This document shows, in pieces, positions 3,439 to 56,520 of a DNA stretch of 64,000 bases (positions within the stretch are counted from its first letter, which is position 1; each line of letters opens with the position of its first letter). The stretch lies in NCBI GenBank assembly GCA_963817525.1, contig CAWFOU010000007.1, forward strand, positions 768,001-832,000, written 5' to 3'. The notes beneath the pieces are model-generated. The model searched no databases. It was not told where the DNA came from and was given only the letters and a program-made list of their open reading frames with translations. The position numbers and the translations under genes are program-made. The DNA is from an uncultured archaeon. Lineage in GTDB: Archaea; Thermoproteota; Nitrososphaeria; Nitrososphaerales; Gagatemarchaeaceae.

Positions 3439-3508
3439 CCTCCCTGGGCCTAGATTTTGATTGACCGATGGAGGGGGGCTGTAGACCTCCCCTCCACCGA
3501 CTTCGACA

Positions 3509-3795
3509 CGTGTCGGCACGTAGTCCTCCTTTTGTTCTAGGCGGGATTCAGCTCAGCGGCCTACCTTGGTCTGGTGCAGGCGCGTCGTCGACCATGTTCG
3601 GCCTTGCTCTGCACGGGTCAGCCGTTTCATCCCGTTCCCGTCGACCTCGGGATCGCTCCTTCATCGCTCTTGACGGGACGGGTCTCGTTTCTGTTCTGTT
3701 GCCAGCCGTCTCCGACTACGTCTCTCGGCGTCGTGCATCCTGCAGTGAGGGAGGAACTTCCCCAGGAGATCCCCGTGGCCCACCCGCCGACTCGC
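3509..3795 (-). ncRNA. rnpB: RNase P RNA
   Basis: Minus strand has GGGGAAGTTCCTCCC, AACAGAAAC, GATGAAACGG and AGAACAAAAGGAGGACTAC conserved regions; ends pair (GTCGGC/GCCGAC). Confidence 0.92.
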
Positions 3796-9635: not shown

Positions 9636-10349
9636 TCATCTCTGCCGATGGCGTCGCACTTCGGCTGACGTCACGCGACCCTCGCCCTCTACGAGCACGT
9701 ATCCCCTTCCTCTTCCCAGAATTCGCCGAATGGTCTCCCTGGCATACTTTGGGTGCATCCTACGGAGTTCGCTCAGGCAGCGCCCCTCTTCGAAATGCGC
9801 TCTTCTGATATTGTCGTAGTCCCTCCTGGATACCTTCGCTCTTGACTTTTCTATCGCTGCAACGATTTTTGCTCTTCTCTTATCTTTCATCAGAGCGTCG
9901 CCTTCCGGATAGGTGAACGGAACATGAATGACGACCTTCCTCTCACGCCTTTCCCTTCGACCTGCCTCAACCTCCTCTCCAAAAATCCCGAATAGGTCGT
10001 CACCTCGAACCCTTCCCTCGTAGCAGTCGATTCCGGCCTGTGCCTCAATGGCTTTCTTGAAAAGGAACGGACGCATTGCCTTCAAGCAAAACAACACACT
10101 CTCGAATCGGCTCACCGCAACCATGTAGGCTGTTCCCTTGGAGGTCTTCAGGACGTTACTCGTAATCACACCATGCTTCTCAAGGAACCCTCGGACCATC
10201 ATAATCTGATCTCCAGACTGGTCGACAAAGATTAGGCTCAGGCTGATTTTGTAAGGCTGATTGGAAGTGTCTGAAATGACTATCGTCCCGTCGCCATCGA
10301 AGTAGCCAGCTACCTGCCTCCAGGAGGTATATTCGGTCACTCTCCACAA
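9636..10349 (-). CDS. Free-standing single-motif LAGLIDADG homing endonuclease with C-terminal HTH-like extension
   Basis: QVAGYFDGDGTI motif, FVDQS, PFLFKK; lower GC than host. Confidence 0.85.
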   Translation of the reverse strand: MWRVTEYTSWRQVAGYFDGDGTIVISDTSNQPYKISLSLIFVDQSGDQIMMVRGFLEKHGVITSNVLKTSKGTAYMVAVSRFESVLFCLKAMRPFLFKKAIEAQAGIDCYEGRVRGDDLFGIFGEEVEAGRRERRERKVVIHVPFTYPEGDALMKDKRRAKIVAAIEKSRAKVSRRDYDNIRRAHFEEGRCLSELRRMHPKYARETIRRILGRGRGYVLVEGEGRVTSAEVRRHRQR

Positions 10350-10422
10350 AGGTGGAATTGTGATAAAAGGGCAACGGTTAATAGCGGATTCTCGGATACT
10401 TCGGGACAGGTGATATTTGGCA

Positions 10423-10657
10423 TTGCCAATGGCCTTTCGTCCTCATTAACGCAGATTTAGGTGCTGAAGAGGAGCTGCTGAAGTCGCTCAGAGGGTTAGA
10501 GTTCGTTCGTGACGTCTACGTTGTCTATGGCGTTTACGACATCATTGCCAGGGTCGAGGCCGACACCATGGAGAAGGTCAAGGAGACCATCACGTGGAAG
10601 ATCCGCAGGCTCGACCGCGTCAGGAGCACCCTGACGATGATCGTCGTCGAAGGCTAA
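10423..10657 (+). pseudogene. Lrp/AsnC ligand-binding-domain protein with one extra T at 10435-10437 (frameshift or read error)
   Basis: Removing one T gives MPMAFVLINADLGAEEELL...VYGVYDIIARVEADTMEKVKETITWKIRRLDRVRSTLTMIVVEG; AGGTGA SD upstream. Confidence 0.8.
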
Positions 10658-23056: not shown

Positions 23057-23112
23057 CGATTATCAGGCCGACCTTCGAAAAGCTTAAGATTGAATCCGCC
23101 CCCCACAGCGGT

Positions 23113-23168
23113 CGGCGGTGGGGCTCGCCATAACCGCTCGCATTAGATTGTGAGCCAATAGCTCCTAC
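23113..23168 (+). ncRNA. Fluoride riboswitch (crcB motif)
   Basis: GGCGGTGGGGCTCGCCATAACCGCTC...GAGCCAATAGCTCCTAC; GGGGCT/AGCTCC pseudoknot; directly upstream of crcB. Confidence 0.9.
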
Positions 23169-23202
23169 AAGAACAACAAGAGCGAGCGGTGATGGGAACA
23201 AG

Positions 23203-24120: not shown

Positions 24121-24537
24121 CTAGTTTTCGGGCTCGTCAATTCGTTCGACCGTACCATCGAAGCCTATTGAGACTGAAGAGCGCGGGAGCTTGCCAACGC
24201 CTTTGTCCACGAGCCACCTCGAGTACTTGCTGGAGTGGTGCATGCTGCGAACGTGGCGCCTGAAAGTCTCAATCGACCTGGCCGAATGGCCGCACGTGCA
24301 AATGTTGAAACCATCGGGCATCTCGAGCGTCAACACTCCCATCATGATGCTGCAGGGAAGACATCTGACCTTGACTCCCTTTGAGTGAGACGGGGAATAT
24401 ATTATCATGCCCACGTCGAGGATCCTCTGGCAGGACCAGCATCTCATCACGCCGCCGTGTCGATGGATCATAGCGGAGGAGATGCGATAGCAGTGAGCTT
24501 CCTTAGGAATGCTCGCTGTGAAGAGAACCTCCTTCAT
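24121..24537 (-). CDS. Cys/His-rich putative zinc-finger protein
   Basis: CWSC, CLPC, CTCG...HVRSMH; lower GC. Confidence 0.6.
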   Translation of the reverse strand: MKEVLFTASIPKEAHCYRISSAMIHRHGGVMRCWSCQRILDVGMIIYSPSHSKGVKVRCLPCSIMMGVLTLEMPDGFNICTCGHSARSIETFRRHVRSMHHSSKYSRWLVDKGVGKLPRSSVSIGFDGTVERIDEPEN

Positions 24538-24768: not shown

Positions 24769-24786
24769 TGGTAGCGAGGGGTGGAT
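24769..24786 (-). repeat. Orphan intronless 3' end of tRNA-iMet including CCA
   Basis: Minus strand ATCCACCCCTCGCTACCA equals the spliced 3' end of the tRNA at 25275-25395 plus CCA. Confidence 0.9.
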
Positions 24787-25309
24787 AAATATCATATCCA
24801 CTTATTTTGCAGTTGGGCACCAGAGAAGCTTGGTTCGCGGGCCTGATAGACGGGGAGGGTTGTTTCACTATCGGAATCTCGCACCAACACAAGAGAGCCC
24901 TAAAATTCAGCCTGATTTTTTCGATTTCAATGAAGAGTGGAGATTGGCAAAACGGCGCACAAGAATTGCTCAGGTTCCATGATATTCCCTTTCACACCCG
25001 GTGCCGGAAGAATCAATTCGAAATAACCGTGAGCGGCCATAAATCTGTGAAGAAATTAATTGCCGTTACCAAACGGTATCTGGTAGTGAAGAAACCAGTT
25101 GCCGAAGTCCTGGCCAGCTTTCCCGTCGCCCCTGCCAGGAATAGGTTCACCGGAGTCGATAAGCGTTATCTCCGAATTGTCTGTGAGAAAGTAGACCAGG
25201 TGAGATTCTTGAACAAGGGAAAAAACAGGAAGCACAAGTGGGATGGCAGACGAATCTGGATGTTTTATGATTAATAGCGAGGGGTGGAGTTTCAGAGGGA
25301 TATCCCTCC
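24787..25309 (+). mobile_element. Putative homing cassette: LAGLIDADG gene plus replacement intron-bearing tRNA-iMet 3' end
   Basis: AT-rich nuclease gene between two copies of the tRNA 3' end. Confidence 0.7.
24807..25274 (+). CDS. Free-standing single-motif LAGLIDADG homing endonuclease
   Basis: WFAGLIDGEGCF, YLVVKK; start may be TTG 24813; stop abuts tRNA 3' end. Confidence 0.92.
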   Translation: MQLGTREAWFAGLIDGEGCFTIGISHQHKRALKFSLIFSISMKSGDWQNGAQELLRFHDIPFHTRCRKNQFEITVSGHKSVKKLIAVTKRYLVVKKPVAEVLASFPVAPARNRFTGVDKRYLRIVCEKVDQVRFLNKGKNRKHKWDGRRIWMFYD

Positions 25310-25395
25310 TTTGAACCACCGCTCTGCGGGTTATGAGCCCGCCGGGATAACCTTGCCCCTTCGGTCGGGAGAAGGTCTGGCTTCCCCACCTCGCT
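25275..25395 (-). tRNA. tRNA-iMet(CAT) with two non-canonical BHB introns (D-loop 25352-25376; T-loop 59/60 25289-25309)
   Basis: Spliced AGCGAGGTGGGGAAGCCAGGTTATCCCGGCGGGCTCATAACCCGCAGAGCGGTGGTTCAAATCCACCCCTCGCTA; A1-U72 and GGG/CCC anticodon stem; T-loop BHB TTCA/TGAA with AAG and ACT bulges. Confidence 0.93.
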
Positions 25396-46218: not shown

Positions 46219-46371
46219 TGGTGGGGTCGCCCGGATTTGAACCGGGGGTCTCAAGCGCGCTCGGACTAAGCAAAAGCGATTTTGCCGTAGTCTCCCAAGG
46301 CTTGAAGCCTAGACCAGACTAGCCCCGCGACTCGAGCAGCAGCCCGATTATGCGGCCTAGCCGACGACCCC
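46219..46371 (-). tRNA. tRNA-Pro(TGG) with canonical intron (46258-46293) and non-canonical 15/16 intron (46319-46356)
   Basis: Spliced GGGGTCGTCGGCTAGTCTGGTCTAGGCTTCAAGCCTTGGGCGCTTGAGACCCCCGGTTCAAATCCGGGCGACCCCACCA; both introns form BHB motifs. Confidence 0.93.
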
Positions 46372-46416: not shown

Positions 46417-46959
46417 GTGCGGGCTGTTTCAATACGCAGTTCCAGAATCGCAATAATGGCCTATCTAATCGGATTATTTGATGGCGAAGGCTGCCTGACA
46501 ATAAACGTCGAGAAAGACAAGAGGAAAGGAGCTATTTCAGAAGTCGGAGCATGGAGAATAATCCCATGCGTCCAATTCACCAATTCGGATAACGCCCTCG
46601 TCTTGGCGATTGACAGAATGCTCAAGACTCTTGGTCAGCATCCCACTATCCAAAGATATCCAAATGGGTCGGCTCACGTTAGACTCTGGCGTGCAAGTGA
46701 AATCGAGGCATTTTGTAGAGAAGCCATGATGTTTTCGAATGGCGCCAAATCGGCGCAGCTCTCCATATTCATCAACAAACTAATCCCCATTTTCGAATCT
46801 CGTCCTCTCATGGGCAAGAGAGGAGGAAGGATTTGGACCACGACGCTGTTTCTCCAAGCAATGACTCTGATAGATGAGATTAATCAATTCAAGAGAAGTC
46901 GAAGGACGGCTCGTCGTTACAGCCGGGCATACTTCGCAGCGCTCTGGAATTTGCAGTAG
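46417..46959 (+). CDS. Free-standing single-motif LAGLIDADG homing endonuclease
   Basis: AYLIGLFDGEGCL, VQFTNSD; AT-rich. Confidence 0.92.
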   Translation: MRAVSIRSSRIAIMAYLIGLFDGEGCLTINVEKDKRKGAISEVGAWRIIPCVQFTNSDNALVLAIDRMLKTLGQHPTIQRYPNGSAHVRLWRASEIEAFCREAMMFSNGAKSAQLSIFINKLIPIFESRPLMGKRGGRIWTTTLFLQAMTLIDEINQFKRSRRTARRYSRAYFAALWNLQ

Positions 46960-46964
46960 CCTCG

Positions 46965-46981
46965 GACTAGCCGACGACCCC
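46965..46981 (-). repeat. Orphan duplicate of tRNA-Pro 5' end
   Basis: Minus strand GGGGTCGTCGGCTAGTC equals first 17 nt of spliced tRNA-Pro. Confidence 0.9.
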
Positions 46982-49574: not shown

Positions 49575-49714
49575 TGGTGGGGACGGCCGGACTTGAACCG
49601 ACGGATCACAGGTATCGCCGCTCCGATGGGAAATCATCCACGCAAGCGTGTCATCAAACTTTTTGTCGTTTGACCACTGGAGCCTGTTGCCATGCCTGTC
49701 TAGGCTACGTCCCC
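49575..49714 (-). tRNA. tRNA-Trp(CCA) with 63-nt canonical intron (49614-49676)
   Basis: GGGGACGTAGCCTAGACAGGCATGGCAACAGGCTCCAG|ACCTGTGATCCGTCGGTTCAAGTCCGGCCGTCCCCACCA. Confidence 0.93.
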
Positions 49715-56401: not shown

Positions 56402-56520
56402 TCAGCCGGCCATAGCGTGTGGGTCCGACCTGGACTCGTCCGATCCCAGAAGTCAAACCACATGTCGTCACTGTGTTAGTGAGGTGCGAGAGCTCTCGTG
56501 AAGCAGTGATGTCGGCACCC
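56402..56520 (+). rRNA. rrf: 5S rRNA (stand-alone)
   Basis: GCCGGCCATAGC...GGACTCGTCCGATCCCAGAAGTCAAACC...GCGAGAGC...GTCGGC; TTAAAT box at ~56375; ends approximate. Confidence 0.9.

Follow-up and report, generated by a model that had tools for sequence, protein, structure and literature searches.

What allows a nuclease gene to sit inside the only initiator tRNA gene of an archaeon and yet leave that tRNA whole? The question is raised by a 64-kb stretch of DNA (contig C7, positions 768001-832000; hereafter the window) from genome G000, a 2.8-Mb bin with 61% G+C, 95% completeness and 8.75% contamination that belongs to family f1, the Gagatemarchaeum-like Thaumarchaeota. Here the gene for the initiator tRNA (tRNA-iMet) runs directly into a convergent gene for a putative LAGLIDADG homing endonuclease, which we call HEG-1, and beyond it lies a second, orphan copy of the tRNA 3' end. 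Comparison with relatives shows a cassette architecture with conserved boundaries and a patchy spread within one archaeal family. The element is probably a mobile nuclease cassette that displaced an exon of its host gene. To the complete account developed below, in which the mobile cassette targets the intronless T-arm of the tRNA gene and a small intron at position 59/60 protects the rebuilt gene, we assign a probability of about 50%.

The initiator tRNA gene and its two 3' ends

The tRNA-iMet(CAT) gene occupies positions 25395..25275 of the minus strand. Its 121 nucleotides (nt) include two introns but no encoded CCA, and it was recognized by direct reading, by its minimum-energy fold and by a partial match to the Rfam tRNA model. 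Direct reading gives the acceptor stem AGCGAGG/CCTCGCT and the discriminator A73 at 25275. Archaeal initiator tRNAs are identified by the CAT anticodon, an A1:U72 pair and three G:C pairs that close the anticodon stem, all of which are present (anticodon arm GCGGG-CTCATAA-CCCGC). The motif of the anticodon arm and the pattern of the 3' part each occur once in G000, and the genome therefore has a single initiator tRNA gene. ARAGORN with default settings called no tRNA in the window, and the Rfam model gave only 18.9 bits at tRNA-iMet; with introns allowed, ARAGORN reported 41 genes genome-wide, several of them with implausible introns of 300-1700 nt that we distrust.

The 3' exon in use (nt 60-73; 25275-25288, minus strand) is the left copy of a 14-nt direct repeat. 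The right copy, at 24785..24769 on the same strand, comprises nt 60-73 followed by CCA, and we read it as the displaced exon of the former resident. The 18-mer ATCCACCCCTCGCTACCA stands at 24786..24769 of the minus strand, while the window has exactly two copies of the 14-mer TCCACCCCTCGCTA, at 24772-24785 and 25275-25288; a search allowing one mismatch gave three matches, against 0.05 expected from shuffled sequences. The orphan is located about 490 nt from the working exon, and the 486 nt between the repeats hold the nuclease gene alone. No integrase was found between or beside the repeats, the neighbours being genes for HD, TFE, DUF190 and CrcB proteins and an open reading frame (ORF) of 138 amino acids (aa). 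A preliminary description of the locus, made from the letters of the window, had listed the tRNA-iMet gene, a 21-nt intron at 59/60, the missing CCA, a nuclease stop codon abutting A73 and the orphan some 490 nt further on, and every one of these elements is indeed there.

HEG-1 itself (24807-25274, plus strand) is a free-standing gene for a protein of 155 aa with a single LAGLIDADG motif. It is convergent with the tRNA gene and its TAA stop codon abuts A73, so that in place of CCA the discriminator is followed by TTA (25272-25274), the reverse complement of that stop. The protein matches the Pfam family LAGLIDADG_1 (PF00961) with E = 1.7e-7 and 32.5 bits, above the cut-off of 23.1, and a profile built from three HEG-1 members finds LAGLIDADG nucleases of solved structure, with I-AabMI as the best match (1.2e-8), I-HjeMI at 1e-7 and I-CreI at 0.05-0.5 over residues 8-143; entries in the PDB titled 'Ribosomal protein 3/homing endonuclease-like fusion' are also among the matches. 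The motif GLIDGEG (residues 12-18) is unchanged in 8/8 aligned members and includes the acidic residue at the eighth position of the LAGLIDADG motif, which we take to be catalytic. With these features HEG-1 has the sequence hallmarks of the LAGLIDADG homing endonucleases and is a putative nuclease of the I-CreI-like type, and its single motif, in a chain within the usual length of about 150-170 aa, would imply a homodimer.

At the other end of the nuclease gene a TATA-like box, TAAATA (24786-24791, plus strand), precedes the candidate TTG starts by about 16-22 nt and may be the promoter element of HEG-1. Read on the minus strand it is TATTTA, the end of the cassette, which adjoins the orphan at all eight genome loci described below and at most of the metagenome loci. 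The preliminary description had attached meaning to the fact that the orphan continues by one base across the spliced junction. This base is the last A of the conserved TATTTA, and hence the crossing says nothing about an intronless origin. Over 21 nt the orphan and its trailer in G000 match without a difference the working allele of G020, which is intronless and encodes CCA; no other iMet end with an encoded CCA turned up in the 30 family loci of which the trailers were inspected. This identity speaks in favour of an intronless recipient in G000.

The intron in the T-loop (25309..25289, minus strand; 21 nt) lies between A59 (25310) and T60 (25288). It can be read directly as a canonical 3-4-3 bulge-helix-bulge (BHB) with the central 4-bp helix TTCA/TGAA and the bulges AAG and ACT, in which the T-stem GGTGG/CCACC provides the outer helix and GAGGG-ATAT-CCCTC the inner hairpin, and in which both splice junctions follow the second base of the respective 3-nt bulge. 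The minimum-energy fold computed with RNAfold (-56.1 kcal/mol, z = -3.25) contains the cloverleaf and the hairpin of the intron, but leaves the A/U-rich central helix open. Removal of the intron restores a standard tRNA, and natural intronless alleles of relatives read GTTCAAATCCACCCCTCGCTA across the site. Among 40 distinct versions of the 59/60 intron 34 retain TTCA/TGAA plus two bases, and their inner helices co-vary, which indicates that these introns are constrained as splicing substrates. The very same 21-mer is found in G012, G017 and G022, and also inside the orphans of G018 and G020. The single intron of the preliminary description has a companion that had been overlooked, namely an intron of about 25 nt in the D-loop (25376..25352, minus strand; boundary ambiguous by 1 nt), delimited by comparison with relatives: it is missing from the otherwise identical D-arm of G012, G001 and G010 and present with changes in G006.

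Recurrence of the cassette in genomes and metagenomes

A profile survey was carried out over 401 genomes of the order, 97 of them from family f1 and 304 from 19 other families. HEG-1 is present at tRNA-iMet in 8 of the 97 genomes of f1, spread over four genera (G000, G001, G005 and G006 in one genus; G188, G322, G106 and G179 in three others), and in 0 of the 304 genomes of the other families; a further weak match was a 396-aa frame in G224, far from the iMet gene of that genome. The eight carriers share one layout: the 59/60 intron, nt 60-73, the antisense nuclease gene within 0-6 nt, TATTTA and an orphan comprising nt 60/61-73, which ends in a native-looking trailer. In G005 the nuclease gene is broken by a stop codon or a frameshift.

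In metagenomes, 75 loci encode relatives of HEG-1, of which the best 37 were inspected, the other 38 being matches of at most 36% identity or short ones; some of these contigs duplicate each other or the surveyed genomes, and the metagenome counts are thus not independent. At least 51% identity to HEG-1 singles out loci of which all 24 that can be assessed abut an iMet 3' exon behind a 59/60 intron. The combination of TATTTA and orphan was found by pattern in 22 metagenome loci and, in decayed form, by eye in five more. The T-stems of the working exon and of the orphan differ (CCACC versus CCTCC) in G322, G106, G179 and many contigs, which indicates that the two copies derive from different alleles. 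The orphans of relatives lack CCA, and some of them have decayed, with the first base altered in G006 and G005 and with insertions or deletions in loci L128 and L141.

Archaeal integrative elements are typically recognized by direct repeats of a tRNA end on both sides of foreign DNA, and a comparable tRNA-Thr fragment next to a recombinase-bearing element was reported for Caldiarchaeum (PMC3293823). The orphan could thus be an att scar left by an integrase-mediated insertion of a virus or plasmid at the tRNA 3' end, since decayed and with the nuclease as a passenger. We consider this very unlikely: the nuclease gene alone accounts for the 486 nt that separate the repeats, with no integrase there, the repeat is merely 13-14 nt long, the minimal unit recurs with identical ends in four genera and dozens of metagenome contigs, and at other tRNA genes there are different LAGLIDADG genes, whose orphans lie 5' in some cases and 3' in others. 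The preliminary description had kept an ordinary att scar as the reading for the case that its own failed, and the recurrence of the same layout speaks against it.

A different possibility is that the orphan is the real 3' exon, with the nuclease gene antisense within a BHB intron of about 520 nt at 59/60 and the nearer 3' end as a decoy or an alternative exon. Archaeal rRNA introns that are spliced at BHB motifs can contain LAGLIDADG genes, and the orphan of G000 does carry CCA. However, the bases that precede the orphan (…GATATTTA) cannot form the TGAA+2 partner of the TTCA kept by 34/40 59/60 introns, and the decay of the orphans in relatives, their lack of CCA and their frequent mismatch with the working T-stem likewise speak against it. 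We hold this explanation to be hardly credible.

One observation counts against the account that we favour below: in the public contigs aligned to the locus no empty-site allele was seen, apart from one loose end in a low-depth contig. The four best-matching public runs gave low-depth contigs that carry the nuclease-bearing allele in pieces, with no joint that spans the cassette. The one RNA run compared contained just 5% of the sampled words. The loose end belongs to run X2, in which a single low-depth contig has 64 letters unlike the nuclease gene right 3' of the tRNA end (25272); it may come from another allele or a related strain and is a faint hint. A candidate pair of an empty and a filled site in G322 (an intronless and a cassette-bearing iMet gene on the two contigs C49 and C59) was rejected: the DNA upstream of the two genes is 74% identical and C49 is 82% identical to G179, of another genus, from which it follows that the G322 bin mixes two organisms.

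The 59/60 intron and the nuclease

The account that we favour would run as follows. A mobile cassette of about 510 bp, built around the free-standing LAGLIDADG nuclease gene, would reside in the single tRNA-iMet gene at 59/60 to 60/61. It would bring a replacement for the 3' exon (nt 60-73), so that the essential tRNA stays whole, and the resident 3' exon would be pushed downstream and survive as the orphan. The enzyme would cut the uninterrupted T-loop/T-stem DNA of intronless alleles, whereupon repair templated by a cassette-bearing allele would copy the cassette in. The short 59/60 intron, spliced from the RNA by the host endonuclease, would shield the rebuilt gene from cutting. Recombination between the 14-nt repeats might later drop the nuclease gene and leave a gene with the intron and without the nuclease, which fits the many intron-bearing alleles without HEG-1 that we see.

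The presumed target is deduced from the architecture. Neither copy of nt 60-73 in a carrier is continuous with the T-loop: the intron separates one of them and the end of the cassette the other, exactly at 59/60 or 60/61. A site that spans this junction would be the sole nearby sequence that non-carriers possess and carriers do not, and the intronless T-arm would accordingly be the only self-consistent target that can be derived. As far as sequence comparison can tell, the chances that the intronless T-arm is the target and the 59/60 intron its protection appear evenly balanced. The palindrome of the T-arm has, in our reading, an odd centre of 7 nt, which fits only loosely a homodimer with a 4-bp centre.

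The association of nuclease and intron was examined by a pattern census of iMet genes in the family, which gave 80 matches in 75 of the 97 genomes, 37 of them with an uninterrupted T-loop and 43 with 18-30 additional nt at 59/60. Of the latter, four are downstream orphans, and the addition of G005 with its 31-nt intron leaves 40 intron-bearing and 37 intronless working alleles. HEG-1 accompanies 8 of the former and none of the latter (about 0.004 by the hypergeometric distribution, with kinship ignored), and no HEG-1 gene stands beside an intronless T-loop at any of the 8 genome and 24 assessable metagenome loci. The preliminary description had proposed a survey of iMet loci for the co-occurrence of intron and nuclease, and every nuclease locus in this sample has the intron; it had also named, as evidence to the contrary, an intron fixed in nuclease-free relatives, and what we find is a polymorphic intron, neither fixed nor rare, that alternates with intronless alleles even among the nearest relatives as ranked by the neighbouring HD gene.

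A number of observations nevertheless weigh against an intron that travels with the nuclease and protects its host gene. To begin with, 32 of the 40 intron-bearing alleles have no HEG-1, and in 15/15 such loci that were inspected the orphan is absent as well, so that the intron may simply predate the cassette; these alleles fit the loss of the nuclease by recombination between the repeats and a pre-existing intron equally. Introns at 59/60 also occur in other families of the order in which HEG-1 was not found (G031, G034 and G027). G012, which has the intron of G000, carries a different LAGLIDADG-like ORF upstream of the tRNA, and comparisons with 'nuclease-free' genomes are thereby muddied.

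The histories of the two elements are likewise uncoupled. The nucleases of G000 and G006 are only 53% identical (nonsynonymous divergence, dN, 0.42; synonymous divergence, dS, saturated), whereas their introns differ at 1 position in 21; the neighbouring genes are closer, at 98% identity for TFE and 82% for HD, with dS of 0.45-0.53. In a sliding comparison the identity of the two genomes is 86-100% through the whole tRNA gene, both introns included. The intron marks no break; the drop to about 56% comes precisely at the 3' end of the tRNA, and past the orphan the sequences are unrelated. Conversely, the nucleases of G188 and G322 are 72% identical and their introns, of 20 and 30 nt, are unrelated. 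In neither pair were intron and nuclease inherited together, and at least some nuclease exchanges must have left the intron in place. A discrepancy in the opposite direction from that of G000 and G006 is seen between G001 and G188, the nucleases of which are 70% identical against 62% for the HD neighbour; the stretch of DNA that is about 72% identical between these two stops at the orphan and lies within unrelated flanks. The interpretation given in the preliminary description is upheld in part: the nuclease and the rebuilt 3' end behave as one conserved cassette, and the intron accompanies the nuclease at 8/8 genome and 24/24 metagenome loci, but most introns stand without HEG-1 and those of G000 and G006 are uncoupled from their nucleases. 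That the intron of G000 itself arrived with its present nuclease we think unlikely.

A second nuclease family at tRNA-iMet shows that intron content may change by replacement. HEG-2 (222-230 aa; Pfam LAGLIDADG_3, 7e-11) follows the iMet gene in G018, G227 and G196, with a 63-aa remnant in G345, and the orphan here covers more of the tRNA 3' part. The working copies of G227 and G196 have an intron in the T-stem and none at 59/60, whereas their orphans have the 59/60 intron and none in the T-stem. The working copy of G018 lacks both introns and its T-stem is altered (GAAGG/CCTTC); its orphan has the two introns and is followed by a remnant that resembles HEG-1 of the G006 type. Three metagenome contigs preserve a full stack of HEG-2-like ORF, orphan, intact HEG-1 and orphan. 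From these loci it follows that tRNA segments borne by cassettes change the intron content of the gene and that invasions are nested. One detail counts against protection by introns: the T-stem intron of the displaced copy in G018 failed to prevent the replacement by HEG-2.

In an alternative that we regard as rather doubtful, the intron is an older, independent resident without a protective role, and a mobile nuclease cassette, made up of 3' exon and nuclease or of nuclease and orphan, landed on intron-bearing alleles or was swapped between them. The true target or the route of transfer would then be elsewhere, e.g. in ordinary recombination through the conserved tRNA and the repeat of 13-14 nt. 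It is favoured by the excess of HEG-1-free intron alleles over carriers, 32 to 8, by an intron that tracks the host clade (the 21-mer is shared by G000, G012, G017 and G022, the closest relatives by the HD neighbour) next to a nuclease that does not track it, by the break of identity between G000 and G006 at the tRNA 3' end, and by introns in the D-loop of tRNA-Pro that have native flanks and no nuclease in G022, G020, G017 and G008. However, it leaves unexplained the base-exact coincidence of the cassette boundary with the intron site at 8/8 genome and 24/24 metagenome loci, and the fact that no carrier is intronless although 37 of 77 alleles are. Moreover, a target that included the intron/exon junction would persist in the working gene of the carrier and be cut, and the HEG-2 loci show cassette segments that do alter intron content.

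It may also be asked whether homing still takes place. The cassette could be a relic or a domesticated gene that stems from an ancient invasion, has ceased to home and is kept vertically or for a host function, with the orphan as a fossil. In keeping with this, the G005 copy is broken, remnants persist in G018 and G345, the empty site was not seen in public contigs, and dS is saturated in 6/7 nuclease pairs, so that no recent transfer is documented, a point that counts against our own account as well. Against a relic stand the pattern of divergence, with dN of 0.19-0.42 at saturated dS and a dN/dS of 0.08 in the sole computable pair (1/7), the patchy presence in 8/97 genomes and four genera, the disagreement between nuclease and host divergence in both directions, and the GLIDGEG motif that is intact in 8/8 aligned members. 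We consider the relic improbable. The substitution patterns indicate strong purifying selection on HEG-1, and the nuclease alleles are old, are maintained by selection and have been exchanged independently of the flanking genes.

Replacement elements at other tRNA genes and known systems

The account of a mobile cassette in tRNA-iMet gains a wider setting from other tRNA genes. Of the seven non-intein LAGLIDADG matches in G000, four lie within 110 nt of a tRNA gene. In the window this concerns tRNA-Pro(TGG) (46219..46371, minus strand), which has an intron in the D-loop (~46319-46356), a canonical intron and an encoded CCA; ARAGORN names it Ala-TGC, which we reject on the basis of the anticodon loop CTTGGGC of the intron-free form in G006. 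A gene for a LAGLIDADG protein of 180 aa (46417-46959, plus strand; Pfam LAGLIDADG_3, 1.8e-7, and LAGLIDADG_1, 1.4e-5) is situated between the rebuilt tRNA-Pro gene and an orphan of its 5' end (46981..46965, minus strand), 17 nt long, of which 15 are an exact repeat of 46357-46371. The orphan has retained its native upstream flank, which matches that before the uninterrupted tRNA-Pro genes of G006, G022, G020 and G008, while the rebuilt gene has an A/T-rich upstream box of its own and its D-loop intron begins where the repeat ends. The orphan crosses the intron site by only 2 bases. The nuclease was found in G000 only (1/97 family genomes), so that this case has no replication across genomes; the site in G006 is empty and intronless. 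The D-loop introns that occur without a nuclease in G022, G020, G017 and G008 are homologous to that of G000, and the polarity of events is thus as ambiguous here as at tRNA-iMet.

On contig C1 of G000 (676465-677369), an ORF for a LAGLIDADG protein of 263 aa lies upstream of tRNA-Val(CAC) and separates it from an orphan of nt 1-43. This orphan comes from a different tRNA-Val allele, with another acceptor stem, a change at position 37 and its own upstream box, and the working gene is intronless. Further pairs of tRNA and LAGLIDADG genes exist in relatives at tRNA-Ala(GGC) and tRNA-Val. The combinations of nuclease and orphan at tRNA-iMet (with two nuclease families), tRNA-Pro and tRNA-Val represent a general class of homing-endonuclease elements that bring along a replacement piece of the tRNA. 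We tentatively extend the reasoning to this family of soil and peat archaea: several families of free-standing LAGLIDADG nucleases might home into tRNA genes by means of such pieces, with short BHB introns installed, swapped or removed as marks of immunity in successive invasions. The stacked orphans might then record a cycle of the rock-paper-scissors kind, between a nuclease tied to the 59/60 intron and one that replaces intron-bearing T-arms.

Further tRNA genes with adjacent LAGLIDADG ORFs were noted in passing. In G000 (C7:1045105-1045917) an ORF of 170 aa lies between an intronless tRNA gene (Ala-TGC according to ARAGORN, 74 bits with Rfam) and tRNA-Ile(GAT), and no repeat of at least 11 nt was found around it. 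In loci L048 (G009) and L037 (G016) tRNA-Ala(GGC) is followed by a LAGLIDADG ORF of 108-127 aa on the same strand; in L048, 11 nt of the tRNA 3' end are repeated on the far side, and the tRNA of G016 has an insert at the border of T-loop and T-stem. In the metagenomic loci L157 and L160 distant homologues of HEG-1 (34-38% identity) adjoin other tRNA genes; in L157, copies of the 3' end of that tRNA, one of them with CCA, stand on both sides of the nuclease gene. An ORF of 268 aa in the window (9639-10442, minus strand) has the motif VAGYFDGDG and weak LAGLIDADG matches (E ~0.03), and no tRNA was detected near it at E <=1.

Two more arrangements concern the iMet locus itself. An ORF of 144-212 aa with the motif LVGLIDGEG, designated 'HEG-3', lies between the HD gene and the iMet 5' end on the strand of the tRNA; such an ORF is found at 965-1396 of locus L093 (G012) and in the same place in G230, G251, G024, G021 and G002. 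It had no Pfam match at E 0.1, and no orphan 5' end was seen at these loci; it may represent a third nuclease family at tRNA-iMet. In locus L079 (G020), about 1.3 kb separate the working iMet gene, with its intronless T-loop and encoded CCA, from an orphan that has introns in both the T-stem and the T-loop. The intervening DNA contains ORFs of 294 and 154 aa without a LAGLIDADG motif, which suggests a replacement element of a different kind.

As regards the surroundings of the cassette in the window, the 138-aa ORF (24121..24537, minus strand) belongs to some 0.85 kb that G012 lacks, along with the cassette, in the interval from tRNA-iMet to the DUF190 gene. It has merely weak hints of a zinc ribbon and no homologue in the loci compared or elsewhere in G000. 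Rfam matches above the gathering score are a fluoride riboswitch (23105-23174) before the crcB and DUF190 genes, the archaeal RNase P RNA (3508-3795), a 5S rRNA (56402-56520) and an intron-bearing tRNA (49578-49714).

Parts of the iMet cassette have counterparts in known systems. In organelles, homing endonuclease genes in fungal mitochondrial atp6 and rps3 carry a replacement for the end of the invaded gene, and the displaced end stays behind as a pseudogene. As in the iMet cassette, the nuclease gene lies inside an essential gene, the insert restores its end, and an orphan further downstream is what is left of the original one; the organelle targets are, however, protein genes with fusion in frame, whereas here a tRNA gene is concerned, with the nuclease on the opposite strand and a short intron in the rebuilt end. 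In Thermoproteales, LAGLIDADG genes reside within BHB introns of rRNA genes. In Thaumarchaeota they are reported to reside in group I introns of rRNA genes (PMC6125680); among the relatives studied here, loci L029 (G021) and L030 (G012) have LAGLIDADG ORFs (E ~1e-25) inside 23S rRNA genes, overlapping group I intron matches of 26-32 bits, below the gathering score. The nuclease family and the conserved stable-RNA gene as target are common to these cases and to the iMet cassette. The rRNA nucleases are encoded within their introns and on the same strand, whereas the iMet nuclease gene lies outside the tRNA, on the opposite strand, next to an intron of about 20 nt.

A closer parallel to the proposed division of labour is collaborative homing, in which a free-standing nuclease is paired with an intron that shields its own genome; it is documented in phages (PMC6083498; see also PMC2790892), examples being F-CphI with the psbA group I intron of cyanophage S-PM2 and T4 mobE with the I-TevIII intron. 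The iMet locus resembles these cases in having a free-standing nuclease gene beside its presumed target and an intron of the carrier at the presumed site, the two occurring together at all loci assessed (8/8 and 24/24). The differences are that the iMet intron is a BHB intron of about 20 nt in a tRNA, spliced by protein, whereas the phage introns are self-splicing, belong to group I and interrupt protein genes; that the cassette lies inside the target gene and needs a duplicated exon; and that the nuclease is of the LAGLIDADG type, with cleavage and immunity deduced here from sequence. The iMet cassette may thus be an archaeal counterpart of collaborative homing.

Among archaea, the nearest case is tRNA-Thr(GGU) of Caldiarchaeum subterraneum (Sugahara et al. 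2012, PMC3293823), where a non-canonical intron is present in addition and foreign DNA fills the 1.8 kb up to an orphan fragment; in the authors' view the intron came with a mobile element, and introns guard against renewed invasion. Unlike the iMet cassette, that element has a putative recombinase and is explained by an attB/attP model of integration; in our case the sole gene is that of a LAGLIDADG nuclease, the repeat measures 13-17 nt, and the arrangement recurs at several tRNA genes and in many genomes. We found no description of free-standing LAGLIDADG genes with orphan tRNA pieces in archaea, in a literature search that did not extend to subscription journals and supplements, and the words 'intron', 'homing' and 'LAGLIDADG' do not occur in the principal genome paper on the family. 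What is new is the combination of LAGLIDADG cassettes in archaeal tRNA genes with protein-spliced mini-introns at the junctions, in several nuclease families and at several tRNAs, and with stacked orphans.

In practical terms, standard tRNA finders miss tRNA-iMet and misname tRNA-Pro as Ala in such genomes, and the cassettes are a place to look for natural LAGLIDADG enzymes that would act on highly conserved sites of 20 bp. For tRNA biology, the interest lies in the origin of introns. Those at odd positions of archaeal tRNAs have been attributed to transposition of introns, to intron-bearing elements that use att sites and to protection against invaders, and a census of tRNA introns in Asgard archaea, presented in a 2026 preprint, tested several routes and left the route of arrival open. 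The locus described here and its relatives give this question physical footprints, in the form of wedged nuclease genes, displaced pieces that differ in their introns, and nested orphans that order the events. If the proposed account is true, loss of the nuclease gene between the repeats would leave the intron alone, and would thereby constitute a route at the DNA level for the gain and turnover of non-canonical tRNA introns in these archaea.

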